Assembly (NCBI GenBank): GCA_965207735.1
Contig: OZ242296.1
Location: 3,936,001-4,000,000, forward strand
Reading direction: 5' to 3'
Source: Candidatus Versatilivorator sp.
Lineage (GTDB): Bacteria; Acidobacteriota; Terriglobia; Versatilivoradales; Versatilivoraceae
Length of the DNA stretch: 64,000 bases
Positions 833-54,900 of this stretch are shown here, one piece after another. The translations under genes were made by a program, and so were the position numbers. The notes under the pieces were generated by a model. The model was given only the letters and a program-made list of their open reading frames with translations. It did no database searches and was not told where the DNA came from. How positions within the stretch are numbered: position 1 is the first letter of the stretch; each line of letters starts with the position of its first letter.

Positions 833-875
833 TTGACAATGTCACATAATTTTATTATATAAATGACATTGGAGG
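833..875 (+). promoter_or_regulatory. Sigma70-like promoter with overlapping palindromic operator and RBS
   Basis: TTGACA 833-838, 17-bp spacer, TATATA 856-861; inverted repeat CAATGTCA(837-844)-N19-TGACATTG(864-871); GGAGG 871-875. Confidence 0.7.
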
Positions 876-881
876 ATTCAA

Positions 882-1451
882 ATGAGCGACGGGCCACACA
901 GAAGCCTACCGATGTCGTGGGGCTGGAGGCGGTTCGTGGAGCGCATCTATATCGAAGCGTTCAGTCATGACGAAGAACGCAATGCTCTGGTAACGGCGCT
1001 GGAACAGGATTGGCGCAAAGGGAATATGGAAGGACTAGTCCAGAGAGTTGGTGAGACTCTGCGCGACCGCCAAACCCATTTCTTCTGCGATCAAGGCGCT
1101 GAAAAACTCAAGTTACTTCGAAGAGAAGCAGCTTTGTCCCCACTTCAGTATGCATTTCTCGACTTTTTGGACAACGCTGTGGCCGCAGGGCATTCAGGAG
1201 ATGGTGCAATAATCGAGGCGGCTTATCAGACCCTTTCCGATCTCGCGGCGCGCCGCACACGCCAAGTCGAGGAACACTGTCTACGAAAACTGGGGCAAAG
1301 ACGCGGCACCTATTTCAGACAACGCATCGAAGGCGCAATTAATGAATTGGAAACTGCGGCGCCCGCCCACCGTCTTCTCGGCATCGATCAGAATGAGCCC
1401 CCACTAACGCTTGCAAAGAAGACGGGTCTGGACGACGGAGTGCGCCTCTAA
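882..1451 (+). CDS. Hypothetical helical protein, putative QueC partner/substrate (QatB-like position)
   Basis: 189-aa ORF with good RBS; stop overlaps the queC-like start (TAATG). Confidence 0.8.
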   Translation: MSDGPHRSLPMSWGWRRFVERIYIEAFSHDEERNALVTALEQDWRKGNMEGLVQRVGETLRDRQTHFFCDQGAEKLKLLRREAALSPLQYAFLDFLDNAVAAGHSGDGAIIEAAYQTLSDLAARRTRQVEEHCLRKLGQRRGTYFRQRIEGAINELETAAPAHRLLGIDQNEPPLTLAKKTGLDDGVRL

Positions 1452-2875
1452 TGGAGAATGCAACAGCATTGAACACCACTTTGCCGACACATCGGGTCCA
1501 TGTCGTGGAACAGGGAGCGTCTGCCCGTCGCCATTGGGTCAGCTGCGAGATCGGCGAGAACCTCAAGTTCGACATGGGTGGTCTCCAAAGCTATTGCCTC
1601 GCCAATTGGGATGCACGGGTTTACGACGCGTTTGTCGTTGCTGCGGCGGTGCAGTTTTGCGATCACACGAAGCGTCGACCTTCGGCTGAGTGGGGACGCA
1701 ATTTTGTCTTGCGAATTCCGGTTCATGATCCGGGGCACTGGAAGTCGGCGGATGTCTCGATTCCCCTGCATGACGCCTTGAGGTTGCTCACCTGCGATCA
1801 GTGGCAGATTACCTTCGAGACAAGGAAGACCGCTGCATCGGTTCCCCGCTCCGGTAACTTCAATGTGCCTGACGACACCTCGGTAATCATTCCCTTCAGC
1901 GACGGTCTTGATTCACATGCAGTGGCTGGTCTCATGAAGTTGGAACATGCTTACAACGTGATCCGAGTACGGCTTGGGCAGAAATTGTGGCACGGAAACC
2001 AAAACGGCAGTCGATTGCCGCAATTCACCTCCGTTCCGTACCGTATAGGATATGGCAAGAATCGCGCCGTTGAAATGAGCGGGAGGTCACGTGGTTTCAA
2101 GTTCGCGGTTCTCAGCGGCGTCGCAGCCTATTTGTCGGGAGCCAAAGATGTCTTTATGCCCGAAAGTGGCCAGGGTGCCCTGGGACCGAGTCTTGTTCCG
2201 GTTGGTCAAGAGTACGAAGACTACCGAAATCACCCCTTGTTTACGGATCTAATTGCGACTTTCCTGTCTGCTCTTCTCGGTCATACGGTTCGTTTTGCCT
2301 ATCCCCGTCTCTGGCACACCAAGGCGGAGACCCTTGCCGAATTCGTGGCCAAATGTCCGGAGGACGTACGGAGTTGGGATCAAACCCGGTCCTGCTGGCA
2401 GGGTCAAAGGCATGTGTCGGTGTCCGGAAAGATGCGCCAGTGCGGCACCTGTGCCGCCTGTATGCTCAGGCGCATGAGCGTCCACGCTGCAGGTCTCTCG
2501 GAATGTAAACAATTATATGTCTGGGAGGATCTGACCACGATGCGATATGAAGACGGTGCCGCTCCTACATTTGAAAAAAGAAAGCCGAAAGGCGCCATGT
2601 ATGAGTACGCGATTGCAGGAACGCTTCATCTCGATCATTTGGCAGGTATCCTGCATTCCCGTGCAAACCAGGCCACGCTCTTTCGACAGGTCTTTCTGTT
2701 GAGCAGATCCCTTGGACGTCCTAAAGGGGAAATTCGAGCAAAACTGGAACGGTTGATAAGGAAACACACGGATGAGTGGCAGGGTTTTGTCGAGTCCTTG
2801 GGGTCGGCGTCATTTGTAACTCAGTGGGTTGAAAGGAGAGATAAACATGTCTCGCCCGGAGGTGAATGTCGTTGA
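1451..2875 (+). CDS. QueC-family (7-cyano-7-deazaguanine synthase-like) protein, long QatC-like defence type
   Basis: PP-loop PFSDGLDS; RSRGFKF; NHPLF; TKAE; Zn ligands SCW...CGTCAAC; N-terminal extension (AAAVQFCD...W.R.F.L.IPV.DP..W) typical of QatC-like proteins. Confidence 0.85.
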   Translation: MENATALNTTLPTHRVHVVEQGASARRHWVSCEIGENLKFDMGGLQSYCLANWDARVYDAFVVAAAVQFCDHTKRRPSAEWGRNFVLRIPVHDPGHWKSADVSIPLHDALRLLTCDQWQITFETRKTAASVPRSGNFNVPDDTSVIIPFSDGLDSHAVAGLMKLEHAYNVIRVRLGQKLWHGNQNGSRLPQFTSVPYRIGYGKNRAVEMSGRSRGFKFAVLSGVAAYLSGAKDVFMPESGQGALGPSLVPVGQEYEDYRNHPLFTDLIATFLSALLGHTVRFAYPRLWHTKAETLAEFVAKCPEDVRSWDQTRSCWQGQRHVSVSGKMRQCGTCAACMLRRMSVHAAGLSECKQLYVWEDLTTMRYEDGAAPTFEKRKPKGAMYEYAIAGTLHLDHLAGILHSRANQATLFRQVFLLSRSLGRPKGEIRAKLERLIRKHTDEWQGFVESLGSASFVTQWVERRDKHVSPGGECR

Positions 2876-4025
2876 TGTCGGCCGGCGTTTGCGAATCGCG
2901 CGTGAGGCAGCCGGCATGACCCAGGCGCAGGTGGCCGCCAACATCAATGCGGCCCGCACGACGCTGGTTGCCATAGAGAAAGGTCAGCGCACGGTTCGGT
3001 TTGCTGAACTTCGGCCCTTGGCCCGGCTGTACGGCACGTCGGTCAATGCGCTGCTGCGGCGAGAATCCGTATACACCGATCTCGTGCCTCGATTTCGCAA
3101 GCTCCCTGGCAGCGACGACGAGGCGTCCGCCGAGGCGTGCCGGCTGCTGGCAGACCTCGTTCGAGCCGAAGTGGAACTTGAAAACCTTCTCGGGATCACC
3201 CATCCACGAAACTATCCTCAGGAACGAGTGTTGCTGCCCGGGGACGTGCGCACCCAGGCCGAAAATGACGCGACGGAACTTCGGCAGAAACTCGGGCTGG
3301 GATTGGCGCCGGTCCGAGACCTGATGAGTCTGCTGGAACTCGACCTTGGGATTCGCCTTTACGTTCGGCGGCTTGCTCCTCAGGTGTCTGGACTGTTCGC
3401 TTTTGATGAGCAGGTTGGCGCATGCATGCTGCTGAATGCCAGCCATCCGCGCGGACGGAGGATGCAGACCGCGGCGCATGAGCTCGGTCACCTTGTTTCA
3501 AACCGCCGATTCCCGGACGTTCAGTACCGCGATGGAGGTGAGGGCTCACGTGAGGAGAGATACGCGGACGCTTTCGGCCGCGCTTTTCTGACGCCGGCGC
3601 GGACGGTGATGCAGAGATTCAGAGAGGTGACGCAGGGCGCTTTCCAACTGACGCGCCGGCACGTCATTGTGCTCGCTTACACCTTCGGCGTATCGCGTGA
3701 AGCACTGGTTCGGCGGCTTGAAGAACTCAACCTAACGAAAGAGGGCACCTGGGATTGGTTTCAGGCGAACGGTAGCATCACGGACGAACAGGCTCGACAG
3801 GTCCTTGGCGATCTCGAGGGCACGGATAGGGACACAATAGATGCAACGCGGCCCACGACGCTGCGCTTGAGTCTGCTCGCTGCTGAAGCATGGCGGCAAG
3901 AACTGCTCAGCGAGGGACAGCTTGCCCGCCTCTTCCATCTTGACCGTATTCAGTTGCGCGAAATTCTGGATGGAGTGGAAACGGAAGGAGTTGAGGCGGA
4001 TGGTGCGCCAAAACTGCCTGCATGA
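2847..4025 (+). CDS. XRE-family HTH fused to ImmA/IrrE (M78) Zn metallopeptidase
   Basis: N-terminal HTH (LRIAREAAGMTQAQVA...IEKGQR); AHELGH HExxH; ERYADAFG motif; RBS AGGAGAG before ATG 2847. Confidence 0.92.
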   Translation: MSRPEVNVVDVGRRLRIAREAAGMTQAQVAANINAARTTLVAIEKGQRTVRFAELRPLARLYGTSVNALLRRESVYTDLVPRFRKLPGSDDEASAEACRLLADLVRAEVELENLLGITHPRNYPQERVLLPGDVRTQAENDATELRQKLGLGLAPVRDLMSLLELDLGIRLYVRRLAPQVSGLFAFDEQVGACMLLNASHPRGRRMQTAAHELGHLVSNRRFPDVQYRDGGEGSREERYADAFGRAFLTPARTVMQRFREVTQGAFQLTRRHVIVLAYTFGVSREALVRRLEELNLTKEGTWDWFQANGSITDEQARQVLGDLEGTDRDTIDATRPTTLRLSLLAAEAWRQELLSEGQLARLFHLDRIQLREILDGVETEGVEADGAPKLPA

Positions 4026-4626
4026 TCGGACCGTTCCCGTCATCGCAGACACGAGCGTGGTGATTAATCTGAATGCCACCCAATGTGCCGAAACGATTCT
4101 GGCCGCTTTGCCCAATCCATTTCTCGTTGTGTCGGAAGTGGTGCTGGAGCTTGAGAGCGGCCTGCAAACCGGCCGAAACGACGCTGCCGCGCTCAAGGAA
4201 TGGCGTACTTCGGGGCGAGTGCAAATCGTGACGCTTGGGGACACCGGGGCGCAGCATTTCTTCAACCTCGTTTCCGGCCCCGCCGCTCAAACACTTGATG
4301 ATGGGGAAGCCGCAACCATCGCCCATGCCTTGGAAACCAAACCCCCTGCCATCCCCCTTATAGACGAACGCAAGGCAAACCGCATCTGCGCTGACCGATT
4401 CGCTCACCTTGTAACGGGCAGCACCGTTGATCTCTTGGCTCAAGACGATGTTCAGGCAACACTTGGGACCGCCCGGCTCGCCGATGCGGTTTTCGATGCT
4501 CTACTCGGTGGCCGCATGCGAGTTCTACCGCATCACTTGAACTGGGTCGTCAACTTGATTGGCCCGGAGCGTGCGAGACAGAGTGAGTCTTTGCCGAGAT
4601 CCATTCGTTCCGGTTCACCCAATTGA
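4000..4626 (+). CDS. PIN-domain nuclease
   Basis: VIADTSVVINL, SEVVLEL, LDDGEAATIAHA and LIDERKA acidic PIN motifs; start overlaps the end of the peptidase gene. Confidence 0.85.
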   Translation: MVRQNCLHDRTVPVIADTSVVINLNATQCAETILAALPNPFLVVSEVVLELESGLQTGRNDAAALKEWRTSGRVQIVTLGDTGAQHFFNLVSGPAAQTLDDGEAATIAHALETKPPAIPLIDERKANRICADRFAHLVTGSTVDLLAQDDVQATLGTARLADAVFDALLGGRMRVLPHHLNWVVNLIGPERARQSESLPRSIRSGSPN

Positions 4627-5530
4627 TTAGCCGGACAGCGGTCTTATATTCAATGTGGCCGCCGGATAGATGCAATAAAGAAGAAAGAGAGGAAGAGTGA
4701 CTAAAGACACCGCTCCCATCCGCGGACTCGCTACTGTGGCTCTCCTAAAGACGAATTTCGACAAGGGGAAAGACCATCTTGGGATGTTTCTTCCCTTTAT
4801 CGTCGATTCAGTGGCGAATCTTCCACGTGATGACTTTTCTGTCCATGAATTGAAGGAATGCCTCTATGACAGGCATGGGCTTTCTGTTCCACAAGGAACT
4901 CTTCGAGTTCTGATCACCCGAGCGACAAGGAAGGGGTTTATTCGACGTGAAGAGGGTCGGTACTTTAGGCTAACAAAGGTCCGTAAGGTTCCGGACCTCA
5001 AGCCTCAACAGGACTCAGTAATGCGGGAGCATGAGGAGCTTGCAGAGGCCTTTCGAAGTTACGCAGCATCGTGGAAACTCGATTTGAAGACTCATGCTGA
5101 AGCCCTTTCGCTCCTTATATCATTCCTGGCAGAGAACGAAATGGCGGTACTGCTCCATGATGACTCGACAGGGATTGAGACCATTACCCCGCACAGAACA
5201 CAACGCATTGTTGCGAGATTCTTTCGGAAAACTCTCGGTGACAATTCCCGCTTGACTCGAATTCTGGAACAATTAATTCAAGGCTATGTTCTCCAAAACG
5301 CGCTTCTCTTGAAAGATATTAGTCAGGCAAGCAGGCCATTTCAAAACTTGGAAGTCTTTCTTGATTCGAATTGCGTACTGCGCGCGCTTGGTCTAGAGGG
5401 TGGTCCCAACAAGATAGCCACGCGTGAAGCGCTCTCAATCTTGAAGACAATGCATGCTCGGCTGACAGTCTTTCATTCTACCATCGATGAAATTAGACGA
5501 ATTCTAAGCCTTTACGAGCACAGGATAGGC

Positions 5531-6030
5531 CGAGCAAAATCTGCGGCAGTTGGGAATCGGGCTGAAACAGTTTCCCAAGCGACAGAAGCAGTTTACGCTC
5601 ACTGAACGATCCCTGACTCTAAAACTCAAGAGACCCAATGAATCTGAAACGGAACCTCGAATTGTTCACGACGTCGATTGCATCGCGGCTATTCTTACGT
5701 TCCGAAGGGGAATGGAACCAAGAAGCTAGGCACGACAGCAGGTCGTAAGAGCCTTCGTCCAGGAGCACTTGCACAGCATTTTTTCACGAATAACTATTCA
5801 CCAGCAGACGTGCGACAGGCGAGCGCTTTAGTCGAGCAAAATCTGCGGCAGTTGGGAATCGGGCTGAAACAGTTTCCCAAGCGACAGAAGCAGTTTACGC
5901 TCACTGAACGATCCCTGACTCTAAAACTCAAGAGACCCAATGAATCTGAAACGGAACCTCGAATTGTTCACGACGTCGATTGCATCGCGGCTATTCTTAC
6001 GTTCCGAAGGGGAATGGAACCAAGAAGCTA
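5531..6030 (+). repeat. 198-bp non-tandem duplication (5531-5728 = 5833-6030)
   Basis: Identical sequence; upstream copy flanked by TAGGC at 5526-5530 and 5727-5731. Confidence 0.95.
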
Positions 6031-6195
6031 TGATAATGCAGGTGCTGTTTTCTTAACAACGAACAACAGGCTTGTAGCTACAGTAAGCGAGTGGATGACA
6101 GAGGAAGGAGTCGACGGACTCCCACCGATCGTACACCAAATACGCCTGACTAACTTCGCTTGGCTAAAAAAGCCCGCAGCAGCTATTAAGCTAAA

Positions 6196-7682
6196 GAGCC
6201 TTTTGCAAAATTCGGAATCGGGCATGACATTGGGCTGGCAACAGTGATGTTCCGGCGGTGACTACCCAGCTGCAAAGACCCTTTTGAAGGAAAAAGCCCG
6301 AATCTGATGGCCGGATGGCCAGCGGTCGCCGGACGCAGGCACAGCTTACCCTCTCCCGGCCTTGAGGCGGGCGAACCTGCTGTGCGGTTGGGGGTGGCAA
6401 CCCGGTCTTCAGAGCGTCAGGCGCATCAACTGATCCACCGTCAGGGCCAGAATGCCGAACATCAGGTGGCACCTCACCTTGTCGGGGCCGCGAACCCTCA
6501 CCTGCCTCCCGCCAAACTCCTCCTTGAGCCGTCCGTTGACCCGCTCCACCGTCGAGCGTTCCCGGTAGCGCCGCGCCTCGGGAGTCACTTGGCCGATACA
6601 GCGCCGGGCCAGTGCCTCCCGCTTCCGCTCGGCTTTCAAGGTAGCTCTTCGGCGGGGGTTGACGTCAATAATCGGCACATGCCCCAGCTTCTCACTGAAG
6701 GCCCGGATCTCCGGCGCATCGTAGGCGCTGTCCATCAAGTCGTAGAGACTCTCGACCCGCCTTGCCGTCAGCGTCGCCAGCGGAATGGCTGCCTGAGAGT
6801 CATGCACCGAGGCCGAGGTCAGCAGACAACTGACCGGAATCCCGCCGTCAATGGCGTCGAGGTGTAGCTTGTAGCCGGTCCAGCTCTCCTGATGCCCCTT
6901 GGCGTTGCGCTTGACGCCGATGTCGCAGGCCTTGGGCAACTCCTTCAACATTTCCTCCAGCGTCATCGACCCCTGCCGCTCCAGCCGGCTCAACCGCTTG
7001 GGCCGTCGCTCGCCCTTCGGCGGCCGGCCCCGCCGGCGTTTCCGCTTGGCCTCCGGCGCAGCCTTGGCCGCTGGCTTTTCCCGTCCCGCAATCGCCGTCG
7101 AGTCCCTCGACACATGCCCCGCCAAGTGGCCCTTCAGCGTCTCCTCCAGCAATGCCTCGTGCAAACGCCCCGGCAGGTCGCTCTCAGCGAATTCCGCAAA
7201 GGCCCGCGAGAAGGTCGACTCGCTCGGTACCTCCCACGCCCTCTCCCAGCCGCACAGCCGCCGCAGCCTCCCCTCACTCCTCAGCCGCTCCACCAATCCC
7301 CGCGTGGTCGCCACCTCCAGCATCGACTTCGCCAGATAGGCTCGCGCCAGCACTGCCCGATCCTCCAGCGGCCGGCCACGCCAGCCCCGACTGTAAGGCA
7401 GCAACTCCTCCACCCGCACCAACTCCAATACCTGCACCAGCCGCTGGTAACGCTCTCCCAGAGGCCCCAAAACTTCCTCCAGCAGGGGAAACAGCTCTCG
7501 TTGAAACCGGAACCAGTGTCGTGATAGGGTTTCCCTAAGGGGCAAGTTCCACCTCCGTTCATCATGTGGTTCAGACACCTTCATGATACAACAGACAGTG
7601 GTCTTGCCCCTCCTTCCACCTGCCCTCCTTGATCTTTCCCCACGTGAAAATTCCCGCTATCTGCGAATTTTGCAAAAGGCTC
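6196..7682 (-). mobile_element. IS (IS5/IS1182-like DDE element), 1487 bp, copy 1
   Basis: 19-bp IR GAGCCTTTTGCAAAATTCG; TAAA target duplication; same element at 46158-47644. Confidence 0.93.
6409..7584 (-). CDS. DDE transposase
   Basis: PSESTFSR, DST, GYKLHL, DSAYD and R.TVER.N..LK motifs. Confidence 0.93.
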   Translation of the reverse strand: MKVSEPHDERRWNLPLRETLSRHWFRFQRELFPLLEEVLGPLGERYQRLVQVLELVRVEELLPYSRGWRGRPLEDRAVLARAYLAKSMLEVATTRGLVERLRSEGRLRRLCGWERAWEVPSESTFSRAFAEFAESDLPGRLHEALLEETLKGHLAGHVSRDSTAIAGREKPAAKAAPEAKRKRRRGRPPKGERRPKRLSRLERQGSMTLEEMLKELPKACDIGVKRNAKGHQESWTGYKLHLDAIDGGIPVSCLLTSASVHDSQAAIPLATLTARRVESLYDLMDSAYDAPEIRAFSEKLGHVPIIDVNPRRRATLKAERKREALARRCIGQVTPEARRYRERSTVERVNGRLKEEFGGRQVRVRGPDKVRCHLMFGILALTVDQLMRLTL

Positions 7683-7914
7683 TAAAGACAAACGAATTGA
7701 TAGCTCTTTGCACAGCTGCGCTTAAACCACGCCGGGAGATCTGGAATAAGTTCACAAGACATCTACAGCAACTACAAGAACAAGATGAAATCACTTCTGA
7801 CGAAGCCGTCGCTATCTTAGCCTCGAGTTACTTGAACAAGTATCTCTCCGATGCTGAAGACGAGGATGAAACAGACACAGGCTCGATCATTGAGATAATT
7901 GACCGGGTGAAAGG

Positions 7915-8051
7915 GAAATATCGGGCCGATGCTGAAGCCAGGATCCTTGAAGCGAAACGTCAAGCGCATGCAGAGGGCGAGAAATATCGCGCCGATGCGG
8001 AAACCAGAGTCCTTGAAGCGAAACGTCAAGCACATTCAGAAGGTGAGAAAT
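7915..8051 (+). repeat. 66-bp (22-aa) tandem repeat x2 in a coiled-coil region
   Basis: KYRADAEARILEAKRQAHAEGE / KYRADAETRVLEAKRQAHSEGE. Confidence 0.9.
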
Positions 8052-9765
8052 CTCGTCAGCTTGAACTTCAGGTCCAAGGGTTCGTTGGCCGTATAGCGAC
8101 AATGGTTTCCCTGCTCACCATAAGTGTGGTAGGAGTTGCGATCCTAGTAGGTCTAGCCCTCTGCTTGCCGGGACTATTCGACCTATGGCCAGGTCCAAGT
8201 TGGACTGGATGGGTCATGATCGCCGTATTTGGGGTTTTTACGGCATTAAGTTTGTTTCGAGGAACCGCGTTGAAAAATGTATTCCTCAAACTCCAGTCAA
8301 CAATAGCTCAGAGGCTCGCAACGTACATTCACTTGCGGTAATCCTTGGGAAGACGGTTAACGCAAGGCGGCTAGCGTCTACGGGATGCGGAGAGGAATAT
8401 CGTTTTCCGGCGGTCCCCGGTGTCGCTAATGGTCCATACAACACGCCTCAACTAAGTTCCCCCGCACTTTGCCGTCTTTGATAAGGCTCGCTTCCAACTG
8501 GTCGCAGATCGCCATTAGCTCATCCAGTTTGGCGATAATGCGGTGTTGCTCGGCGAGGGGTGGAAGAGGAAACACATAGGCTGCGAGGCCCTTGCCGGTG
8601 AAATGTTTGATACCGGTTCCGGTGAAATACTCGGCCAAACGTCCGTCATCGGCACTCGCCCGGAGCGCCCTCACAAAATAATCGCTAGCTACGAGGTTCA
8701 CAAAACGAACACGATGAATCGCTTTCTGAAAGTAGATATCGGTTTCGCGGGTGTCCCACACCGCCGCTCGACCAGGCTCGCCTCCCTCGCATATCAACAC
8801 ATCGCCGAATCGAAGCGCGAACTCTGGAAGCTCCGAATCTTCGAATCGCATCTCCAGCAGGTTGGATAGATCGAAGTCGAACCATCTCACGTTGATGTTG
8901 CGGAGATATTTGTGAGGCGTTCCTTTGTTTTTGGACTTGTCGAGCATCTTACCGAGGCGGGAGTCAGCTACCGCGCCCACCTTCACCCAAGTCCACGATT
9001 CGGGAAGCTCAAATGAGCCAGTGCGTAGAACAGGAATCTTTTTGCGCTTCAGCAATTGCGACGCCGGCTCATCGTTTGGGTCCTGCGGCACCAGTTTGCC
9101 GCGTACAGCCAAGTTAAGGATGGTCTGGCGCAGGGCCTTGATCTGGTCGGGACGGGTGGTGATCGGACCAAGGCTGTTGACGGCAAAGGTGACATCATGC
9201 CGGAATGTCGCCGGGTCGGGGTCAGGTGCGTTGAGGCGAGCGAGGCTTGCCGTCGCCAGCCGATCCCGCGTCGCCTCCCGGTCAGCCCGCGCTGCCTCCA
9301 GCCGGTCGCAGAGCGCCATCAGTTCTTCGACTTTGGCGACGATGCGGTGTTGTTCGGCAAGGGGTGGGAGCATCACCGGAATTTCTAGCGCTTTGGCTTG
9401 GTTAAGCTTTGACCTCGTTGCACCAACCACTCGCCCTGAGTAATCAAAGACATTCAAATAGTGGACCAAGTACGCGTTGGAAACGAGGACACCGCGAAAG
9501 ACATGGGCATGGTTATTCACCCAAGACGTGCCAGCGATCAGATAGGCTTTAGGCCGTAGGGAATCGAAAAAAGGTACGCCGTCTTCGCCGAGTAGTACAA
9601 GCTCCTCATCGAAAATGTATTCGTCGATCCAACCTTGCTGTTGTGTCGCACCAAAGTATGGAAACAGTTGTGAATGGGACTTCCCCGCAATCCTCCGTTT
9701 GCGCTCAGTTCCGTTTACGGGCTTTCGCATGTAGTCCAAACACACAGCAACCAGTCCGAGTCTAG

Positions 9766-17588: not shown

Positions 17589-19046
17589 CTATCTCAGCAG
17601 CGCCTCCGCCAATATCGCTTTCAACTGCTCGCGCAACCTCGCGGCTTCGGCCTCGGCTGCGTTCAGCTTGGCCAGCAGTTCTTGCGGGTCGCCGTGGTCG
17701 TCTTCGGAGGTGTGCGGGTTCTTGATGTCCAGGTTGTAGCCCCGCGCCTTCACCTCGCCAACCGTTACCTTCCAGGCACGGTCCGTTTGCTTGCGATCTT
17801 TGCGCTCCGCTCCGCCCCACCAGTCGATGCAGGGTTGCAGGTGCTCCAGCCGGATGGGCCTGGTCATGGAGTAGGCTTTCTGGCCCTGAGGCACCAGGTG
17901 CTCGTAGAACCAGATGTTCCGGGTGGGTTCGCCCTTCTCGAAGAAGAGTAGATTGGTGCCGATGGAGGCGTAGGGTCTGAAGACCGAGTTGGGCAGGCGG
18001 ACGATGGTGTGCAGGTAACACTCCTCCAGCAGATGCTCCTTAAGCCGTGTCTTGACGCCCTCTCCGAACAGGGTGCCGTCGGGCAGCACCACGGCGGCAC
18101 GCCCGCCGGGCTTCAACAATCGCACGATCAGAGCCAGGAACAAATCGGCGGTCTCCTTGGTTCGGAAGTGCTGGGGGAAATTGCTCTCGATTCCCTCTTC
18201 TTCCTTGCCGCCGAAGGGCGGATTGGTGAGCACGATGTCCACCCGGTCCTTCTGTTCCCAACTGATATAGGGCCGGGCCAGCGTGTTGTCGTGGCGGACG
18301 AAGCTGGGGTCTTCGATGCCGTGCAGCAACATGTTGGTGACACACAGCATGTGGGGGAGCTGCTTTTTCTCTACGGCGCGCAGGGCGGCCTGCATGGTGT
18401 GCTCGTCCTCGGGACGCCTGACGTAGCGGGTGCGCATGTGGCGCAGGGAACAGGTCAGGAACCCTCCGGTGCCGCAGGCCGGGTCGAACAGGGTTTCGCC
18501 GGGCTTGGGGTCGATGCGGTCGGCCATGAAGGCGGTAACGGCTCGCGGGGTGTAGTACTCGCCGGCGTTGCCGGCCGATTGCAGATCGTTGAGGATCTGT
18601 TCGTAGATGTCACCAAAGTGCTGGCGGGCAGTCAGGTCGTTGAAGTCGACGTCGTTGATCTTGTTGACCACTTGGCGCATCAACTGGCCCGACTTCATGT
18701 AGTTGTAGGCATCCTCAAACACATCACGCACGACGCGCCCGCGGTCCCCGGGCTGGCCGCTCGGGCGGAGATTCTTCAGGGCAGGGAACAGGTCGTTATT
18801 GATGAAGTCAAGCAGGGCATCGCCGGTGGAGCCCTCGGGGTCGGCCGCCCAGGTGCGCCACTGGAGGCGCTCGGGAATCGGCGAGGTGTAGTCGGACTGC
18901 ATCAACTCCAGTTCCTGATCCTGATCGTCGATGATCTTGAGAAAGAACATCCAGCACAACTGGCTGATGCGTTGGGCGTCGCCGTCCACGCCGGTATCCA
19001 GGCGCATGATGTTCTGGATGGATTTGACCTGGGTGCGGACGGCCAT
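17589..19046 (-). CDS. hsdM: Type I R-M m6A methyltransferase
   Basis: GEYYTPR, DPACGTGGFL and NPPF motifs. Confidence 0.97.
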   Translation of the reverse strand: MAVRTQVKSIQNIMRLDTGVDGDAQRISQLCWMFFLKIIDDQDQELELMQSDYTSPIPERLQWRTWAADPEGSTGDALLDFINNDLFPALKNLRPSGQPGDRGRVVRDVFEDAYNYMKSGQLMRQVVNKINDVDFNDLTARQHFGDIYEQILNDLQSAGNAGEYYTPRAVTAFMADRIDPKPGETLFDPACGTGGFLTCSLRHMRTRYVRRPEDEHTMQAALRAVEKKQLPHMLCVTNMLLHGIEDPSFVRHDNTLARPYISWEQKDRVDIVLTNPPFGGKEEEGIESNFPQHFRTKETADLFLALIVRLLKPGGRAAVVLPDGTLFGEGVKTRLKEHLLEECYLHTIVRLPNSVFRPYASIGTNLLFFEKGEPTRNIWFYEHLVPQGQKAYSMTRPIRLEHLQPCIDWWGGAERKDRKQTDRAWKVTVGEVKARGYNLDIKNPHTSEDDHGDPQELLAKLNAAEAEAARLREQLKAILAEALLR

Positions 19047-19048
19047 GG

Positions 19049-21463
19049 CTACGCGATCTCCCGATAGAGGGCGTCTTGCATTTCGCGGACGGCCTCAACG
19101 AAGCCCTCCCTGCCGCCAAAGGCCTTGAGTAATTGCACCGGGGTGCCGAGTTCCGTTAAAGGCGGGATGCGGAGCACGGTAACGTCGTCCAGGTTGAATA
19201 CGCCCTCGTCGGCGTACTTGGCGAGGAGCGCATCGAGCACGGCTCGGGCCTTGCCGCCGTACTTGTGGAACACGTCTCGCTTCTTGACGTCGGCGGCGCG
19301 CTCGCGCCGGGTCAAGGGCTTGGCGTCGAAGGCCACGTGGCAGATGAGGTCGAAGGGGTCGAGCTCTCTGTTCAGTTCCTTGGTTATCACATCGAGTTCC
19401 AGGCCTTCGGCTGCCAGCTCGTCGATGATGGCTTGCTTGCGATCGGCCGCGTTCCATCGCCTGAGGAAGTCGTCCAGGCTGGCAAAACGTCTCTTGAGGG
19501 CTTTCTTGGTGAAGTCACGCAGGGATTCTGTGATGAGTTTGCCGTACTGGTCCACGTAGGAGACGCGCTCCGCGACTATGGACGCCCGCACGCCGTTGAC
19601 GTAAATCTTGTACCGGCCACCCTTCGGGGGTGGGTCCGGCGTAACATCGCCGTTGGTTTCGTCCTCATCCGATTGTGGCGGGGTATCATCCTCGTCCGGC
19701 GGCGTGACGGGATCGTTCTCGCCGGGCTCGTAAATCTGGACCGGCTCTCCGTCGAACTCCGGATCGGCGAAGTGGTTGGTGACTCCCCGGAAATCTATCA
19801 GCGTGAAGTAGAGTTTGCGGGTGTTCTCGTGCACTCGGGTGCCGCGCCCAAGGATTTGCTTGAACTCGGTCATGGAGCCGCACTCGCGGTCAAGCGCAAT
19901 CAACCGGCAGGTCTGAACATCGACCCCGGTGGAGAGCAGCCGCGAGGTGGTAACCAGCACGGGATACTTGGATTCGGGGTCGATGAAGTTGTCCAGTTGT
20001 GCCTGGCCTTCGGCGTCACTGCCTGTGATGCGCATGACGTAACGGTGATTCCGGTCCACCAGGTCGGAGTTTTCGTTGATGAGCGCCTGCCTCATGCGGG
20101 CGGCGTGTTCCTGGTCCACGCAAAAGACGATCGTCTTCTGGAAGCGATCGCCGCCTTCCTTCAGGTACCGGGTGACCTTGCGGGCCACCAGCTTGGTGCG
20201 TTCGTCCAGAACCAGGGTGCGGTCGAAGTCTTTGCGGTTGTAGAGACGGTCTTCGACCTCGTTGCCGCCCCGGTCGAGTTGCCCTCGCTCGGGGCGATAA
20301 CCTTCCACGTCCCGGTCGATATGGACCTTGATGACCTTGTAGGGCGCCAGGAAACCATCGAGAATGCCCTGTTTCAGGGAATAGGAATAGACCGGCTCTC
20401 CGAAGTAGTGGATGTTGGAAACGTACCGGGTTTCCTTGGGCGTGGCCGTCAGGCCGATCTGGGTGGCGGTGGAAAAGTATTCCAGGATTTCTCGCCAAGC
20501 CGAATCCTCGGCGGCGCTGCCCCGGTGGCACTCGTCGACCACGATCAGGTCGAAGAAGCCCGGGGAGAATTCGCGGAAAATCTTCCGTTGTTCCTCCGGC
20601 CCGGTGATCGCTTGGTAGAGGCTGAGGTAAATCTCGTAGGCGGTGTCGATGCGGCGCTTCTTGCTGATGGCAGTGGCCAGATCCTCAAAGGACCCGTCCG
20701 CGCGTTCGATGGTTTTAGAGTGGGTCGAGAGCTTGGCCATGGCGGGGCCGAAGGGCCGGAAGTCGTTGACCATGGTCTGATTGACCAATACGTTGCGGTC
20801 GGCCAGGAACAGGATGCGCTTTTTGCGGCCCGCCTTCCACAGCCGCCAGATGATCTGGAAGGCGGTGTAGGTCTTGCCTGTTCCCGTGGCCATGACCAGC
20901 AGGACGCGGTCGCGGCCCTTGGCGATGGCCTCGACTGCGGCGTTGATGGCGTTGACCTGATAGTAGCGCGGCGCCTTGCCGCCGCCGTCGTCGAAATAGT
21001 CCTGAAGGACGATCTTCTCGGACTCGGCCGTCAGTCCCTTCCAGGCGCGAAAACGCGACCACAGGTCGCCCGGCGGCGGAAAGGCATCGAGGGCGAGCGT
21101 GGTTTCCTTGGCGGTGGCGCTGGTGCGGTCATGGAACAGGAAGCCGTCGCCATTGGAGGAGAAGACGAAGGGAATGTTCAACGCGTCGGCGTAGTCAAGG
21201 GCCTGCTGGATGCCGTCGCCGATGGAATGGTTGTTGTCCTTGGCTTCGATCAGAGCGATGGGCAGGTTGGACTTGTAGTAGAGAACGTAGTCGGCCCGCT
21301 TGCCTTTACCCCGGCTGACCAGCTTGCCGCGCACTACGATGCGTCCCTTGGTGAAGTGGACTTCCTCGCGGATTTGCGTCATCTCGTCCCAGCCGGCTTT
21401 CCGCAGGGCCGGGGTGATGAACTTGGTGCAGATGTCCCGTTCGCTCAGGCTCTTCTTGTCCAT
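19049..21463 (-). CDS. hsdR: Type I restriction subunit R (EcoAI/EcoEI-like)
   Basis: IEAK, MATGTGKT, DECHRG, TATP and QILGRGTR motifs; EcoEI-type C-terminus; likely start MDKKSLSERD. Confidence 0.96.
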   Translation of the reverse strand: MDKKSLSERDICTKFITPALRKAGWDEMTQIREEVHFTKGRIVVRGKLVSRGKGKRADYVLYYKSNLPIALIEAKDNNHSIGDGIQQALDYADALNIPFVFSSNGDGFLFHDRTSATAKETTLALDAFPPPGDLWSRFRAWKGLTAESEKIVLQDYFDDGGGKAPRYYQVNAINAAVEAIAKGRDRVLLVMATGTGKTYTAFQIIWRLWKAGRKKRILFLADRNVLVNQTMVNDFRPFGPAMAKLSTHSKTIERADGSFEDLATAISKKRRIDTAYEIYLSLYQAITGPEEQRKIFREFSPGFFDLIVVDECHRGSAAEDSAWREILEYFSTATQIGLTATPKETRYVSNIHYFGEPVYSYSLKQGILDGFLAPYKVIKVHIDRDVEGYRPERGQLDRGGNEVEDRLYNRKDFDRTLVLDERTKLVARKVTRYLKEGGDRFQKTIVFCVDQEHAARMRQALINENSDLVDRNHRYVMRITGSDAEGQAQLDNFIDPESKYPVLVTTSRLLSTGVDVQTCRLIALDRECGSMTEFKQILGRGTRVHENTRKLYFTLIDFRGVTNHFADPEFDGEPVQIYEPGENDPVTPPDEDDTPPQSDEDETNGDVTPDPPPKGGRYKIYVNGVRASIVAERVSYVDQYGKLITESLRDFTKKALKRRFASLDDFLRRWNAADRKQAIIDELAAEGLELDVITKELNRELDPFDLICHVAFDAKPLTRRERAADVKKRDVFHKYGGKARAVLDALLAKYADEGVFNLDDVTVLRIPPLTELGTPVQLLKAFGGREGFVEAVREMQDALYREIA

Positions 21464-21673
21464 GGCGACTGGTTCGGCAGGAACCCTGGCCTGGCTGGCC
21501 CGGGGGCGGCTGCGAGCTTCCGCGCGATCTTGAGCCTCCATGGGAAGCGCGCGTTTGTGCCGCCAGCGCCATCCCCTCAATCCAACGTTCGTCTTGGGGT
21601 GCTTCCCGTCTTTTCAGTGTCGCTGAATGCGGGAGTCCCGAAGCAGCTTTGATTGCGCAGCCGAAAAGAAACG

Positions 21674-48995: not shown

Positions 48996-51900
48996 CTACT
49001 CCCGGGCAGGCAAGTATGCACCATCGCCGCTACGTTCTCCCGGAGCCCCGCCGTCGTTGACCACCCCATAGGCCAGAAACGGGTTCTCCCCCGACACCTT
49101 CTCGATCCGGATATACCCCTGCCGGGTCTCCGAAGAGGCTCTGCCCAGGATCCCGTTGATCTGATACCAGCTCCGCGCCGGGATCGGCCTGGTCACCACC
49201 GTCTCGGCCAGCATCCCCGTCTCCCCGTCGTAGATCTCCAGGTGGAAGACGCTCTCACTGCCGTCCACCTCCCCCGTGTTCACCAGCGCCAGGTTGCTGC
49301 GGTTCTCCTGGTTCTGCTGCAATCCCTCCACCCAGGCCTCCTCGGTGAAACCCTCACCCCGCGGCACCGCGTTGTAGAAAACGCTGTATTGCCCGCCCCC
49401 TCCCTTTGAACCTGTCCTGGCTCCGATCACGATCCCGCTCAGGTCTCCCTCTCCGGCCCTGACGAACACCGGTCCCGCGTAGAACCCCCGCGTCGCCCCC
49501 AGCCCCGCCACTCCCTGGCGCCGCAACTCCTCCACCACCTCGGGCACGATCGCCTGCTCGCTCCCTTCCAGCTCCATGCTGAAAGCAGCCGTCTTGTCGT
49601 CGGTCTTGACTTGCTCGCCCACAAACTCGAATTCCAGCCTCCTGGGCTCCTCGGAGAAGTTCGTCACCGTCAACTCGCTGGTGAACTCGCTCGTCTCCAC
49701 GATCACCGGCAAGGTCTGCGCCACCTTCCCCTCCAGCGAACCTGCCGTCACCGGAAAGACGAACGACCCGTCCGAGTTCCCCTGGTCGTTGATCACCCCG
49801 TAGGCGTAGAAGGGGGCCTCTCCCTCCACACGCTCCACCTTCACGTAGCCGTTCTCCACACCGCCCAGCACTCCCGAAAACTGATGAAACTCTCCCGGCA
49901 TCAGCACCACGTCCTTCAGCACCCGGAGCGTCGTATCCCCCGCCTCTCCCGAATAGACCGTGGTCCTCAGCGTGATCGTTCCCTCTTCCGGCGCCCCCAT
50001 GTTCTGGAAGGCCACGTTCGAGCGATCCTGGCTGTTCTGCCTGAGCCCGCACAGATAGACCGCCTCCTCAAAGCCCTCTCCCTCCGCCACCCCCGGGTAG
50101 GCCAGCCCCGCCCTCCCCTCTGGCACCAGCGTGGTGGTCCGCACCACCGCCTCCACCTCGGACTTCACTGCCACCTCCACCCTCAATGTCCCGATCCGGT
50201 TCCCCGTTGCGGGAATCGGTACCCCCAGACCCCTCAGATAGTCCAGGGCGTCGGTCTCGATCTTCTGCCGGCCTGCCTCGAGCCGGTCGGTGGCCGTGCC
50301 GCTTCCCCCGCCTGCATCCGACGTGTAGATGTAGTGGAGCGTGGCCTCTTCCATCCCACGGTTGGTCAGCGTCAGCTCCGAGGTGAAAAACGAGTTGTTC
50401 CGCCCCGCCGAGGACAGGATCACCGGAACGAACAGCGACCCCGTCGTCAGCCGGAAGCTCCCCTCGGCCACCTCCCCTTCCCCGCAGTCGTAGAGGTACC
50501 CGCCCACTCCCGACTCGGTGAAGCTCAAACGAAGCTCGCAGGAGGCCCCGTCATCGTAGTCGAGCCTCACCGTCCCCCTGCCCGCACCTGTCCTCTCATA
50601 GGCGTAGCTGCCCGATCGCGAAGTGGTGCTCTCCGATCGGGAGTCGGCGCTCTCCGACCGAATCGCCGCCCGCGCTTCCACCCTCTCGATCTGCTCGAAT
50701 CGGTTGCCTTCTGCAAACCGCAGTTCAATGCGTCTGGCGGTCCCCTCTTCGCCCGTGATCCTCAGGGTCGCCCGCCTCCCCTCCAGGTCCTCCTCGCTGA
50801 AGTCCGCCGGATCCTCTGCGTCGGGCTCCTCCATCCCCGTCCTGCCTTCCCCCGGCTGCGACCACTCACCCCTCCCCTCTTCGTTCACGGCTCTCACCTC
50901 CACCCGGTAGAGCCTCTCCTCCTCCAGGCCCGTCAGCGTCAACATGAGTCCCGTCCCCTCGTGCCCCCCGTCCCGGTAGCCTTCCTCTCCCTCCTCCCGG
51001 TAGCGCACCTCATAGCCGGTGATCTCAGGCCCTCGGTTCTCAGGCTCGGACCAGCTCACCGTCAGGCTGTCCGTGCCCTCCGCTCTCACCTCCGGCGTCC
51101 CCACCGCCCCCGGCGGCTCCTCCTCGTCACTCACCCGCACCCGTATGGCCCTCTGTCTCCTCCGCTCCCTCTCCCCCTCTCCGCTCCTCGCCTCCACCAC
51201 CACCACGTATTCGTTGTCTCCTGCAGGGCTTTCGGGCTCCGCGCTCACCGCATCGGCAGGCCTCTCATAGTCCGGCGCCTCCGTGAAGCTCAGCTCTCCC
51301 GTCTCCTCAACTACCCTAAACAGTGCCCCGTCCGCTCCTCCCGCGATCCCGTAGCCGGCAACCTCGTCCCCCTCGTCGGAGTCCACCGCCTCCAGCCGCA
51401 CTACCTTCCTCTGGTTCTCCACCACCTCGAACTGCCCCGGGCTGGTGATCTCAGGCACCCGGTTCAGCTCGCTCAGCCGGAAGCTCCCCTGTCCCTGCAA
51501 CGCGCCCCCGCAGCGGTAGCTGTAGCTGCCTGCTCCCACTCCGCTGAAGCTCATCCGCAGCTGGCACGACTCCCCCCCGTCGTAGTCCAGGCTCAGCTCT
51601 CCCGTCGTCCGGCTGGTGTAGCGGTACCGGTAGCTCCCCATGCGGGTCGCCGTCACTTCCCCCGCTGTGTCCAGCTCCCTCTCCTCGAACCGCAGCCCCC
51701 CTCCAAACCTCACCTTCAGACTCCGCCGGCTTCCTCCAAACGGCGTCCACTCCAATCCGGCCTCTCCACCCTCCAGGTCCTCCGCCCGGAAGTTCGACCG
51801 ATAGGCCGGGTCCAGAGGCATCACCGCCTCCACCGTCTCCGTCTCCCGCCCGTTGCCGATCTGGTTGACCCCACGCAGCTCCAAGGCATAGACCGTCCCG

Positions 51901-54900
51901 TTGAGAAGCCCCATGAGGGTGTAGCCGGAGGCGTTGACCTCCCCGGGGGCGCTGTCCGGGATGGGTGTCCACTCGCCGACCTCGCCCAGGCCTTCTTTGA
52001 GGCGGTACTCGTAGCGCAGGATCTCGGCGCCCCCGTCGCTTTCCGGCGGGCTCCACGCCAACCGCACCGCCCCGTCCCCGGGCGTCGCCGTCAGGACTGC
52101 CGGCGCTTCCGGCGCAAACAGCAGGCCACCGCCGCCGCCACCACCTCCTCCGCCTCCTCCACCGACGCCACGACCTCCTCCTCCAGCTATCGGCGTGGCC
52201 ATCGCCGTCTCTACCCCGCCCTTGCCCAGAGCATTGACCGCCCGCGCCTCGATGACATATTCCCGGCCGTTGATCAGGCCTCCCACCGTCACCCCGATCG
52301 ACCCAGCTCCCACGTTCTCCCACTCGCTCCACGCGTCTCCCACCGCTTGATACCGGTACTCGTAGCGGATGATGGCCGAGCCTCCGTTATCCGACGGCCG
52401 ATTCCATCTCAACCTCACCGATTCGTTGCTCCCGTTGGCCGCAAGACTCAATGTCGAAATCGGTTCGGGCGCCCCAGGCGGCGACACCCGCACCGCAAGC
52501 GGCTCCTCGGGATCTTCGTTCGGCTTGCTGTCCGCAGACGAGTTCACACGGCCCGCCGGCACCGTCAACGTCAAGGTGTAGCTGTGGGCCACACTGCCGG
52601 TATGCGGGGTCACCGTGGTGGTGAAAACCCGGTCGTCAGCCGTTTGCAGGGCCCCGATCCCCGGATCGCAAGACACCGGATTGTTCAGATCGTCAGTGCA
52701 CTCAGGATCCTGGTCGGACTCGATGTCGCTCCCGCTGAACCCCGGCACCGGCTCAGAGAAGCTGATTCTCACCGTGAACGAACCCGACACCGGAGGCTCG
52801 GTGCCGCTCGTCATCACGACCGTCAGCGGCGTCACGGTCATCCCCTCGCCCGATTCCGACCAGTCACTCGTCCCCTCGTCGTTTCTGGCCCGCACCTGTA
52901 CCTCGTAGTCCGTGCCCGGCTCGAGGTCGGAAAGGGGCAAGCTGAGGCCCGGCCCGTCGTGGCCTCCGTCACGGAAGCCCCCCCTGTCCTTTTCCCGGTA
53001 CTGCACGTCATAGTCGGTGATCGGAGGGCCGGTGTTGTCCGGCTCGTTCCAGTTCACCGTCAGACTGTCGGTCGTCTCCTCCGAAAACGTGGGTGCGTCC
53101 GGAACACCAGGAGGTTCCCGCTCGTCGGTCACCGTGATCGTGAACGTCTTCTCCACCGTCAGCTCCCTGGATCCCGTCCCGCTGGTCACTTCCACCGTTA
53201 CCTCGTACTCGTTGTCTCCGGGACCTTCGAAATCCGACTGATCCCGGAAGCTCAACTCCCCTGTGTCCGAGGTAATCTCAAACCGCGACTGATCAGCCCC
53301 GCCCGTAATCGCCCAGCCCGTCACTTCGTCCCCCGGGTCGGTGTCCCTCCCCGCCAGACGCCTCGCCGCCGTCTGGTTCTCCGGAACTTCGAACGAACTC
53401 GGACTCGTGATCTCCGGGTCCGTGTTGGGCGCACCCGTCGTGTTGGTTACCGACCGGTTGCTCAGCCCCGCTGCGTCATTGCCCACCTCGTCCTGGATCG
53501 GGTTGGTCCCCACTGTGTAGCTCACCCGAATCCCCGTATCCCCGTGCTCCACCTCGGGGTTGAGAGTCAGGGTCACCACAGTCCCGCCGATCAAGACTCC
53601 CGAAACGGTTCGCCCACTCCCGTCCACCTCTGCCGTGAAGTCTTCTGGAGCGGGCCTCGATCCTTCGTCCAGCGCCTCTCCGTAGGTCAGCGTCAGCGAG
53701 GCCCCGTCCACCGCCGCACTCGCAAACGCCGGCCTCACCCCGTCCACCTGGTGCCCCGCCTGCGTCGCCACCGTCTCATGGGCCAGCGCCGCCGCATTGT
53801 CCGCCTCATCCTTAATGCTTCCTCCGTTGAGCGTCAGTTGGTCTGCCTCCACGCTCACGCCGTCGGTGTCTTCGTCGCCATCGACCACCTCATAGCCGAA
53901 CACCAGCGCCGCCGTGCCCGTGCCGCTCTCATAGCCGGCCATGCGATTCCTGCCCCCCACGCTCAGCCTCAGCCGCGGTGTTCCCGTTACCGTCACCGTC
54001 TCGTTGAACCTCACCGTCACCTCGATCTCGTCCCCCGCCGCATAGATCTGATCCCCCCCGGGGTTCGAGGTGATGGCCAAACTGCTCACCGTCGGCGGGG
54101 TCGTGTCCGGAGTTTCGTTGGTCACCGGCACGCGGCTCAGCGTCATCGCCGCGTTGCCCACCGCGTCCCGAATCGGGTTCATTCCCGGCGTATAGCTCAC
54201 CCGGATCCCTGCTTCCTCGTGCTCGGCTCCCACATCCAGGGTCAACTCCACCGTCGCACCGCGGAGCGCAACTCGGGTGATCGTCCGCGTATGATCGCCT
54301 CCATCCACCGTGAAGTCCCCCGGCTCAGGGGTCGAGCTCCCGTCGAGCGGCTCGTCGTAGGTCAGTGTCAGCATCGTCCCGTCGACCACCGCTCCGCCGG
54401 TGACAACCAGCTGCGGGTTGACCGCATCCACTTTGTGGCCCGAGTCGGCGGCCACCGCATCATGGTCCAGTTCAGCATCATTGCTCGAGCCGTCTTTGAT
54501 CGTCCCCCCGTTCCGGTCGATGCGGCCGGCAGCAAGGCTCACCCCGTCGGTGTCCAGGTCGCCGCTCGCCACCGGGTAGGCGAACACCAGCGTGTCGCTG
54601 TTCGAACCGCGGGCGTAGGTCGCCGGCTTTGTCTGCACCCCCACCGTCAGGGACAACCGCGGCAGCCCCGTCACCACCACGGTTTCATCGAACGTCACCG
54701 TCACCTCGATCTCCTCGCCGATCGCATAGGTCAGGTCCGGCCCCGGGTTCGAGCTGATCTCGACCCTACTCACCGTCGGCGCCGTGGTGTCTTCGGCGAT
54801 CCTGAGTATGCGGTCCGCGCTGCCGCCGTTCGAGGTGGTCACATACAGGGCTCCGTCAGGACCCAACATCGGGGTCCGCAGCCGACCGAAAGCGCCGTTT

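Follow-up and report, generated by a model that had tools for sequence, protein, structure and literature searches.

The window analysed here, a stretch of 64,000 nucleotides from contig OZ242296.1 of Candidatus Versatilivorator sp., was found to contain an operon of four overlapping genes at positions 833 to 4626, hereafter the cassette, with all of its features on the + strand. The promoter and operator region (833..871) contained a -35 element, a palindrome and a third half-site, to which the XRE domain encoded downstream is predicted to bind. It was followed by the gene of a small protein of 189 amino acids (aa) with the start MSDGPH, hereafter the partner (882..1451, open reading frame (ORF) call), and by the gene of its likely modifier, a QatC-like QueC-family PP-loop enzyme of 474 aa containing PFSDGLDS (1451..2875; Pfam, PADLOC, NCBIfam and Foldseek). 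The third gene (2847..4025) encoded XRE-IrrE, a protein of 392 aa in which an XRE helix-turn-helix (HTH) domain, an IrrE/M78 Zn peptidase and a C-terminal helical domain were fused (Pfam, PADLOC and conserved motifs). The fourth gene (4000..4626) encoded a PIN-domain protein of 208 aa, a predicted RNase toxin (PADLOC PDC-S70), and formed the right edge of the mobile unit. The start of XRE-IrrE was taken as the ATG with a ribosome-binding site at 2847, whereas the ORF list gave a TTG at 2829. The overlaps were 1 nucleotide between partner and QueC, 29 between QueC and XRE-IrrE and 26 between XRE-IrrE and PIN. The GC content of the region was 0.52-0.58, against about 0.62 elsewhere in the window.

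A preliminary description of this DNA had reported four overlapping genes behind a promoter with a palindromic operator, and the ORFs, their overlaps and the palindrome bore this out. It had also described a QueC of 474 aa with an N-terminal extension and an SDGLDS loop, with no queD, queE, folE or tgt nearby; the enzyme was found to be as described, and family scans of the 57 window ORFs contained none of the four genes. The absence of QatA, TatD and a cyclase, which it had stated, was confirmed by scans of the window.

Operator, gene order and distribution of the cassette

The -35 element TTGACA (833-838) was located within the palindrome TGACA-A-TGTCA (834-844), followed by an AT-rich spacer and the third half-site TGACAT at 864-869. 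The -10 element was TATATA, and a sigma70 scan made no call for the cassette promoter. The palindrome of the window was unique in the 5.26-Mb genome. TTGACA[AT]TGTC was present 5' of the partner gene in 64 of the 80 GTDB loci described below, with one match in 1,239,236 nucleotides of their other sequence. In most of these loci an extra TGACA half-site came about 30 nucleotides downstream, two TGACA copies being 24-27 nucleotides apart in 71 of them, and the TGACA operator was conserved across phyla. The HTH recognition region was also fixed, with Q26, R37-T38-T39, A42 and E44 invariant in 60/60 XRE-IrrE sequences. Autorepression by XRE-IrrE through the TGACA operator is likely and is the simplest reading of these sites.

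A GTDB scan anchored on QueC by two short patterns gave 309 loci, and counts were made on the best 80 of them; a metagenome scan anchored on the partner gave 344, 80 of which were used. In the GTDB set, the partner gene was found directly 5' and the XRE-IrrE gene directly 3' of QueC in 80/80 loci. PIN followed in 76, and the other four comprised three contig edges and one loss (L009). Four intact genes were present in 70 of the 80, the rest being frameshifted or cut by contig ends. In the metagenome set, 45 of the 80 loci contained all four genes, and the remaining 35 contigs ended before the missing gene. The gene trees from 70 loci gave Pearson correlations of 0.80-0.90 between pairwise distances, with 0-4 conflicts among the 21-36 splits with support of at least 0.95 per tree. 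No fifth conserved gene was found, the largest neighbour family being present in 16 of 160 loci. The cassette is one conserved, co-inherited operon with the fixed order partner, QueC, XRE-IrrE, PIN. The preliminary description had asked whether the four genes co-occur elsewhere; they did so in these loci, in the congruent trees and on plasmids.

The host genome contained a canonical queC and a QueD/PTPS gene, both distant from the cassette. The cassette QueC is not needed for queuosine because the host owns this separate canonical queC. The NCBI annotation of the cassette enzyme is 7-cyano-7-deazaguanine synthase, as would suit a stray queuosine gene lying by chance beside a toxin-antitoxin (TA) pair. 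We regard such a chance adjacency as extremely improbable; it and a queuosine role were ruled out by the gene order in 80/80 loci, the congruent trees, the common operator and the separate host queC.

On plasmids, 73 records matched QueC; in 25 of them the identity was 34-54% and the match covered at least 90% of the QueC length. The same 25 records carried XRE-IrrE at 51-66% identity, whereas the next 9 of the 34 XRE-IrrE records reached only 27-32%. PIN was found in 26 plasmid records, namely the same 25 and one orphan in Microvirga, and the partner was present in 6/6 QueC-cassette plasmid loci checked for it. The weaker QueC matches were true qatABCD systems with QatA and QatD in 13/13 loci opened. 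The hosts of the cassette included Acidobacteriota, Pseudomonadota, Chloroflexota, Planctomycetota and others, with culturable hosts among them such as Methylocystis, Bradyrhizobium, Iodidimonas and Cupriavidus (L070, L042, L039 and L031). In viral contigs no relative of QueC was found, none of 61 pattern matches being confirmed. The cassette was patchy among kin, being full-length in 3/13 genomes of the same genus and in 0/27 other genomes searched, and contigs of related strains lost their match at 4626, the stop codon of PIN. A remote cassette on a Rhizobium plasmid (L163, 585-4125) had genes for a dTMP kinase, a radical SAM protein and a dGTPase on its 5' side, possibly a nucleotide-depletion defence cluster.

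The neighbours of the cassette loci included AbiE, HipA, restriction-modification (R-M), OLD-UvrD, Fic, integrases and relaxases, and Shedu and Lit too. Defence, TA or mobility families were present within 8 kb in at least 42 of 60 long GTDB loci, a raw count without background control and a lower bound, since the labels covered the 70 largest neighbour families only. Integrases or relaxases lay near 28 of the 60 long loci, and 20 of the 26 PIN-bearing plasmid records were conjugative or mobilizable. These counts would suit a module of mobile elements for dormancy or addiction, inducible by DNA damage and with QueC and the partner as cargo, and VapBC52, the TA system compared below, has non-phage roles too (PMC13273310). 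Against such a non-phage role stand the defence or TA neighbours in 32 of the 60 long loci, for example R-M, AbiE, OLD-UvrD, Shedu and Lit, and the fact that QatC, the closest relative of the enzyme, is an anti-phage protein. We consider the non-phage role improbable, and a defence role of the cassette is likely.

Contigs from four metatranscriptomes of one study spanned about 890-4626 at 88-100% identity, one of them covering the partner, QueC and the start of XRE-IrrE. They were not used as evidence of expression because they carry neither strand nor level and DNA carry-over is possible. In run X4, a contig of a related strain joined 1041 to 2773, with most of the partner and QueC gone and the promoter side and XRE-IrrE kept. 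This junction was found in a single contig and was not seen in four runs of other kind.

The QueC-family enzyme and the partner protein

The enzyme matched Pfam PF06508 (E 6e-6), PADLOC QatC (E 6.5e-24) and the NCBIfam QatC model NF041925 (97.2 bits, against a cut-off of 280). It contained the SDGLDS loop, the RSRGF, ESGQG and YxDxRxHP motifs, N- and C-terminal extensions and four invariant Zn cysteines (C315, C331, C334 and C337). The structure model of the enzyme (pLDDT 89.3) matched QatC over the whole length (Foldseek 9y01/9y02, E 1e-13, TM 0.58-0.61), whereas canonical QueC and Cap9 were matched in the core only. Profile-profile comparison with QatC gave a probability of 99.95 over 372 columns. 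In a quick tree with the host QueC as outgroup, 24 rows of the family (SH-aLRT 99) and 11 rows of QatC (98) formed sister clades. The enzyme also carried the QatC-cluster motifs as listed by Libby et al. (PMC13329287).

As in qatABCD (PMC13279940, PMC13376578, PMC13639016), a small helical gene was located directly 5' of a QueC of about 450 aa with extensions. The extreme N-terminus of the partner was conserved, a PP-loop, a Zn site and a QatC-type fold were present, and the motifs D(x4)R(x)WxR, DxW, RxRxxxF, ExG, HP, TK and CGxCxxCxxRR were shared. Unlike qatABCD, the cassette had no QatA KAP NTPase or QatD TatD in the window or among the 70 largest neighbour families, and its enzyme fell below the QatC equivalog cut-off in a clade of its own. 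SDGLDS and YEDYRNHP were found in the cassette enzyme where QatC has SGGxDS and STRTTHP, and a partner of 189 aa with an S/T-D-G-P start and a short tail was found where QatB has 250-295 aa and MGTS. Type IV CBASS, an anti-phage signalling system based on cyclic oligonucleotides, resembles the cassette in having a QueC-family enzyme that likely acts on the N-terminus of a partner (Cap9 on CdnD; 10.1101/2025.04.06.647259), and the YxD-type base-binding residues are possibly kept. It differs in its cyclase, Cap10 TGT and Cap11, none of which was found in the cassette or its recurrent neighbours, and in the minimal Cap9 domain of about 185 aa, against 474 aa here. Canonical QueC is about 220 aa long, contains YxQxHxxE and VPxRN and has queD and queE as neighbours (PMC13329287); the cassette enzyme fitted none of these.

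The base-binding loop of QueC and Cap9 is T-x-T in QatC (PMC13279940). In the cassette enzymes this loop was Y-E/P-D-Y-R-x-H-P, with D257, R259, H261 and P262 in 96/96 sequences, Y255 in 82/96 and YPD in 12/96, and HMMER placed D257-R259 on the DCR of QueC 2pg3. The cassette enzyme may either have kept the ancestral motif for binding 7-carboxy-7-deazaguanine (CDG) or represent a third type of pocket. The donor is plausibly CDG because the clade has YxDxR, like the YPDCR of QueC, where QatC has STRTT. Such CDG could derive from the host pathway, given the canonical queC and QueD/PTPS gene of the host. The preliminary description had taken it as known that defence QueCs attach a deazaguanine to their partners. 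This stood for Cap9, the reaction of which was demonstrated (10.1101/2025.04.06.647259), whereas for QatC on QatB it is unsettled across three papers: QatC with CDG showed no activity in vitro (PMC13376578), QatC activity could not be reconstituted (PMC13279940), and a low-level NDG peptide on QatB was found by liquid chromatography-tandem mass spectrometry and was absent by intact mass (PMC13639016).

The extreme N-terminus was the most conserved stretch of the partner. Both tails were conserved, with (M)S/T-D-G-P-x-x-S-L-x-M...W15 at the start and GLDDGV, containing a second D-G motif (LDDGV), at the C-terminus, and the core contained the motif RQxEEH. In the 80 loci picked by QueC, Ser2 was found in 77, D3 and G4 in 80, P5 in 79, L9 in 78, M11 in 79 and W15 in 79, and Gly was found at residue 2 in none. 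Overall identity to the window partner dropped to 26-48% across loci, and the N-terminal codons varied freely at synonymous sites. A profile search gave 968 partner clusters at 50% identity. The N-terminus was included in 130 of 142 representatives, with Ser in 124, Thr in 5 and Asn in 1, the other 12 being annotated with a later start. The remote plasmid partners started with MTDGPF in four cases and with Arg-Asp-Gly in one. The preliminary description had pointed to a start of the SDGPH type rather than Gly and had called for a check of N-terminal conservation; a start of the Ser/Thr-Asp-Gly-Pro type prevailed, and the conservation was as expected of a QueC-family substrate. The partner is the likely substrate of QueC. 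The Ser2 codon was AGY in 76/77 cases (L001-L080), one base from the GGY of Gly, and would agree with an ancestral partner that began with Gly.

The model of the partner (pLDDT 79.7) was an all-helical bundle of eight helices with short free tails. No match was found in Pfam, NCBIfam, PADLOC, PDB sequences or the Atlas. A wide structural search gave partial helical-bundle matches, the best with Z 8.1 over 75 residues, and QatB was not among the matches listed.

Asparagine-synthetase-like enzymes adenylate the carboxylate of Asp. The partner might not be the amine acceptor: QueC might adenylate the carboxylate of its invariant Asp3, held by the invariant Arg259, or the partner might be a scaffold, with a nucleic acid or a metabolite as the target of QueC. 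D3 and G4 (80/80) were stricter than residue 2 (77/80; Thr in the four remote plasmid members and Arg in one), and the first substrate of QatC is unidentified in PMC13376578. However, residue 2 was small in nearly all partners, the motif was placed exactly at the start in the 130 representatives, as in QatB and CdnD, and QatC bound neither DNA nor RNA (PMC13376578). We consider this reading improbable.

The XRE-IrrE and PIN pair

XRE-IrrE matched HTH_31 and Peptidase_M78 (E 1e-13) in Pfam and RmrA (E 5e-26) and capP (E 2e-13) in PADLOC. The residues F83, R84, H211, E212 and H215, within P81-x-F83-R84 and H211-E212-x-x-H215, were invariant in 60/60 sequences, and E237 was found in 59/60. The subfamily was unusually conserved, with a mean column identity of 72%. 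The best solved relative of its profile was 9vzy (E 4.6e-10), which matches a VapB52-type chain by the residues described in PMC13273310. The PIN protein of the window had no Pfam match of its own and matched PADLOC PDC-S70 weakly (E 1e-7), with PF01850 found in 8/60 relatives. Its acidic residues D17, E50, D101, E103 and D122 were invariant in 60/60.

VapB52 is an HTH-peptidase antitoxin, which on single-stranded DNA (ssDNA) cuts its own chain close to an FR motif and frees the PIN tRNase VapC52; overexpressed VapC52 protects Mycobacterium smegmatis from phage D29 (PMC13273310). Activation by ssDNA is general to CapP/IrrE (10.64898/2026.05.16.725639). The cassette resembles VapBC52 in having a protein of about 390 aa with HTH, IrrE and C-terminal domains, an FR linker and HExxH..E, with a PIN gene that overlaps it coming next (PMC13273310). 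It differs in the lack of a cysteine switch, in a longer PIN (208 aa) and in that the pair shares a single operon with a QueC pair and lies downstream of it. The preliminary description had let the IrrE fusion and PIN take the place of QatA, TatD and cyclase; the pair is no novelty in itself and resembles a VapBC52-type TA module. Its suggestion that the peptidase may expose or release an activator of PIN was also amended, since the VapB52-type peptidase cleaves itself at FR, which is invariant here, and does not expose a third protein. RosmerTA and CapH/CapP resemble the cassette in that an HTH and an M78 peptidase govern a toxin or immune operon. In both, however, these form a separate divergent pair, whereas here they are fused and lie within the operon, and the toxin slot of RosmerTA is taken here by PIN (PDC-S70 models only), with no match to RmrT.

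The expectation of the preliminary description that no named system would match was upheld by profile and neighbourhood comparison with qatABCD, type IV CBASS, VapBC52 and RosmerTA. No description of the four-gene combination was found in open full texts or in the supplements of PMC13069673 and PMC13329287, with bioRxiv supplements and subscription journals outside this scope, and the word QueC was absent from the main text of PMC13273310. The operon, a QatBC-like pair joined to a VapBC52-like pair, is apparently undescribed.

Distant XRE-IrrE and PIN pairs without QueC adjoined type III R-M or ThiF/ubiquitin-like genes in 3/3 plasmid loci opened. The pair thus appears to be a portable switch that became fixed to the QueC pair in this lineage. 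A second XRE-IrrE and PIN copy without QueC and partner was found in L002 (4546-6290), 1.1 kb upstream of a full cassette. In L166 (2933-6841) a distant pair was divergent from annotated ThiF/multiubiquitin genes, and in L167 (1973-6784) the same switch was divergent from ubiquitination-type genes, which we take to be ubiquitin-like, JAB-like and ThiF-like. A divergent pair of 189-aa and 451-aa proteins beside the distant XRE-IrrE of L167 was considered as a rearranged cassette and rejected, as it matched neither the partner nor the QueC profiles.

Candidate mechanism and surroundings of the cassette

The fixed gene order, the common operator and the intact catalytic motifs of all three enzymes are the basis of a two-armed model, to which we give about an even chance. 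The cassette would be an anti-phage or stress system in which self-cleavage, triggered by phage or DNA damage, both releases the RNase and leads to induction of the QueC arm. At rest, XRE-IrrE would cover the -35 element by sitting on the TGACA operator and would also bind PIN, as judged from VapB52. The ssDNA arising from phage replication or DNA damage would activate the Zn peptidase, which would cut its own F83-R84 linker, by analogy with VapB52, CapP and IrrE. The HTH would then fall off and the operon would be induced, while the released PIN would cleave RNA (tRNA in the case of VapC52) and arrest translation. The induced QueC would bind the partner 1:1, adenylate a carboxylate and transfer it to the N-terminal amine, Ser/Thr2 after removal of Met, as modelled on QatBC and Cap9. 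Since QatBC by itself gives protection from some phages (PMC13279940), the QueC arm may operate in parallel with, and not upstream of, the PIN arm.

Several observations weigh against the two-armed model. Both characterised QueC-type substrates start with Gly, and G2D abolishes qat defence (PMC13279940), whereas residue 2 here is Ser/Thr (rarely Asn, Pro or Arg), followed by Asp. The free tail before helix 1 was about 11 residues in the model, against 30-90 in QatB. No HMM or profile match between the partner and QatB was found (hhalign against 11 QatB, probability 0.6%), and Foldseek gave no match of the partner at E<=0.001. In a second structural look, QatB 9y02_A reached Z 5.3 (rmsd 5.1, 143 residues), rank 16/995 and within the helical background, its alignment being the longest among the matches listed. 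The partner may plausibly be a remote relative of QatB, because of this weak fold match and its position before a QatC-like gene. The YxQ(xHxxE) and VPxRN motifs of QueC were absent from the cassette enzyme, and the register of YxDxR was ambiguous, since an ungapped alignment with QatC sets D257/R259 on Thr-Thr and hhalign to the host QueC differs again. No conserved Cys that could act as a switch was present between H215 and E236/E237 of XRE-IrrE, and no sequence match linked PIN to VapC52. That both arms are strictly retained also suggests a coupling tighter than that of parallel arms.

In a linear pathway, a sharper form of the idea in the preliminary description, QueC would respond to a cue linked to phage or to the nucleotide pool by tagging the partner. 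The partner so tagged, or its second D-G tail, would be the ligand that switches on the peptidase and frees PIN. In favour of this, the four genes hardly ever occur apart, XRE-IrrE is unusually conserved and lacks the ssDNA-sensing cysteine switch of VapB52, and two conserved partner tails exceed what QueC binding alone would need. The distant pairs without QueC argue that the module can work alone, and the QueC-less copy in L002 and the RNA-run contig lacking 1042-2772 also speak against a linear pathway. We give the linear pathway a low probability. Equally tentative is the proposal of a third QueC immune system, in which a new N-terminal tag on Ser/Thr-Asp-Gly-Pro (a nucleobase-derived or other acyl group, or activation of Asp) would trigger the self-cleaving peptidase and free the PIN RNase. 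If true, it would give QueC systems their first example with a recognisable effector and read-out, and would explain the step from a Qat-type modification to defence.

In three structure papers of 2026, the group transferred by QatC, its trigger and the way in which phage is stopped by the modified partner are left open. In the cassette such an enzyme comes under the control of a predicted switch that is inducible and has a scorable RNase, and induction by ssDNA or mitomycin C might reveal an adduct that is hard to catch in qatABCD. As a widespread sister system in which acceptor motif and substrate-binding loop have changed jointly, it offers a natural comparison for the acceptor and donor specificity of QueC protein ligases.

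The placement of the cassette in a defence island by the preliminary description was modestly true. In family scans, a type I R-M system interrupted by insertion sequences (IS) was found 3' of the cassette (hsdS 8426-9745, hsdM 17592-19046, hsdR 19052-21580), and four DDE transposases were present in the window. The three hsd genes lay on the - strand, with about 8 kb containing transposases between hsdS and hsdM. Just 5' of the promoter, at 655-776, a 33-nucleotide inverted repeat with a 56-nucleotide spacer was found, which had 108 blastn matches across the genome and the depth of which in the RNA-run contigs was high. It is not part of the system, and we take it to be a dispersed REP-like repeat. 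A long unannotated gene at 4697-8341 appeared to be broken into the pieces 4697-5605, 5678-6247 and 7583-8341. It contained a 302-nucleotide tandem duplication (5531-5728 = 5833-6030) as well as an IS, the inverted ends of which were 20 nucleotides long (6195-6214 and 7664-7683). It had no Pfam or PADLOC match and matched unnamed Atlas clusters at 0.93-0.96; its VFLDSN stretch is presumably PIN-like. A surface protein of 3916 aa, containing fn3, cadherin, spondin and sorbosone-dehydrogenase domains, was encoded at 48999-60746.

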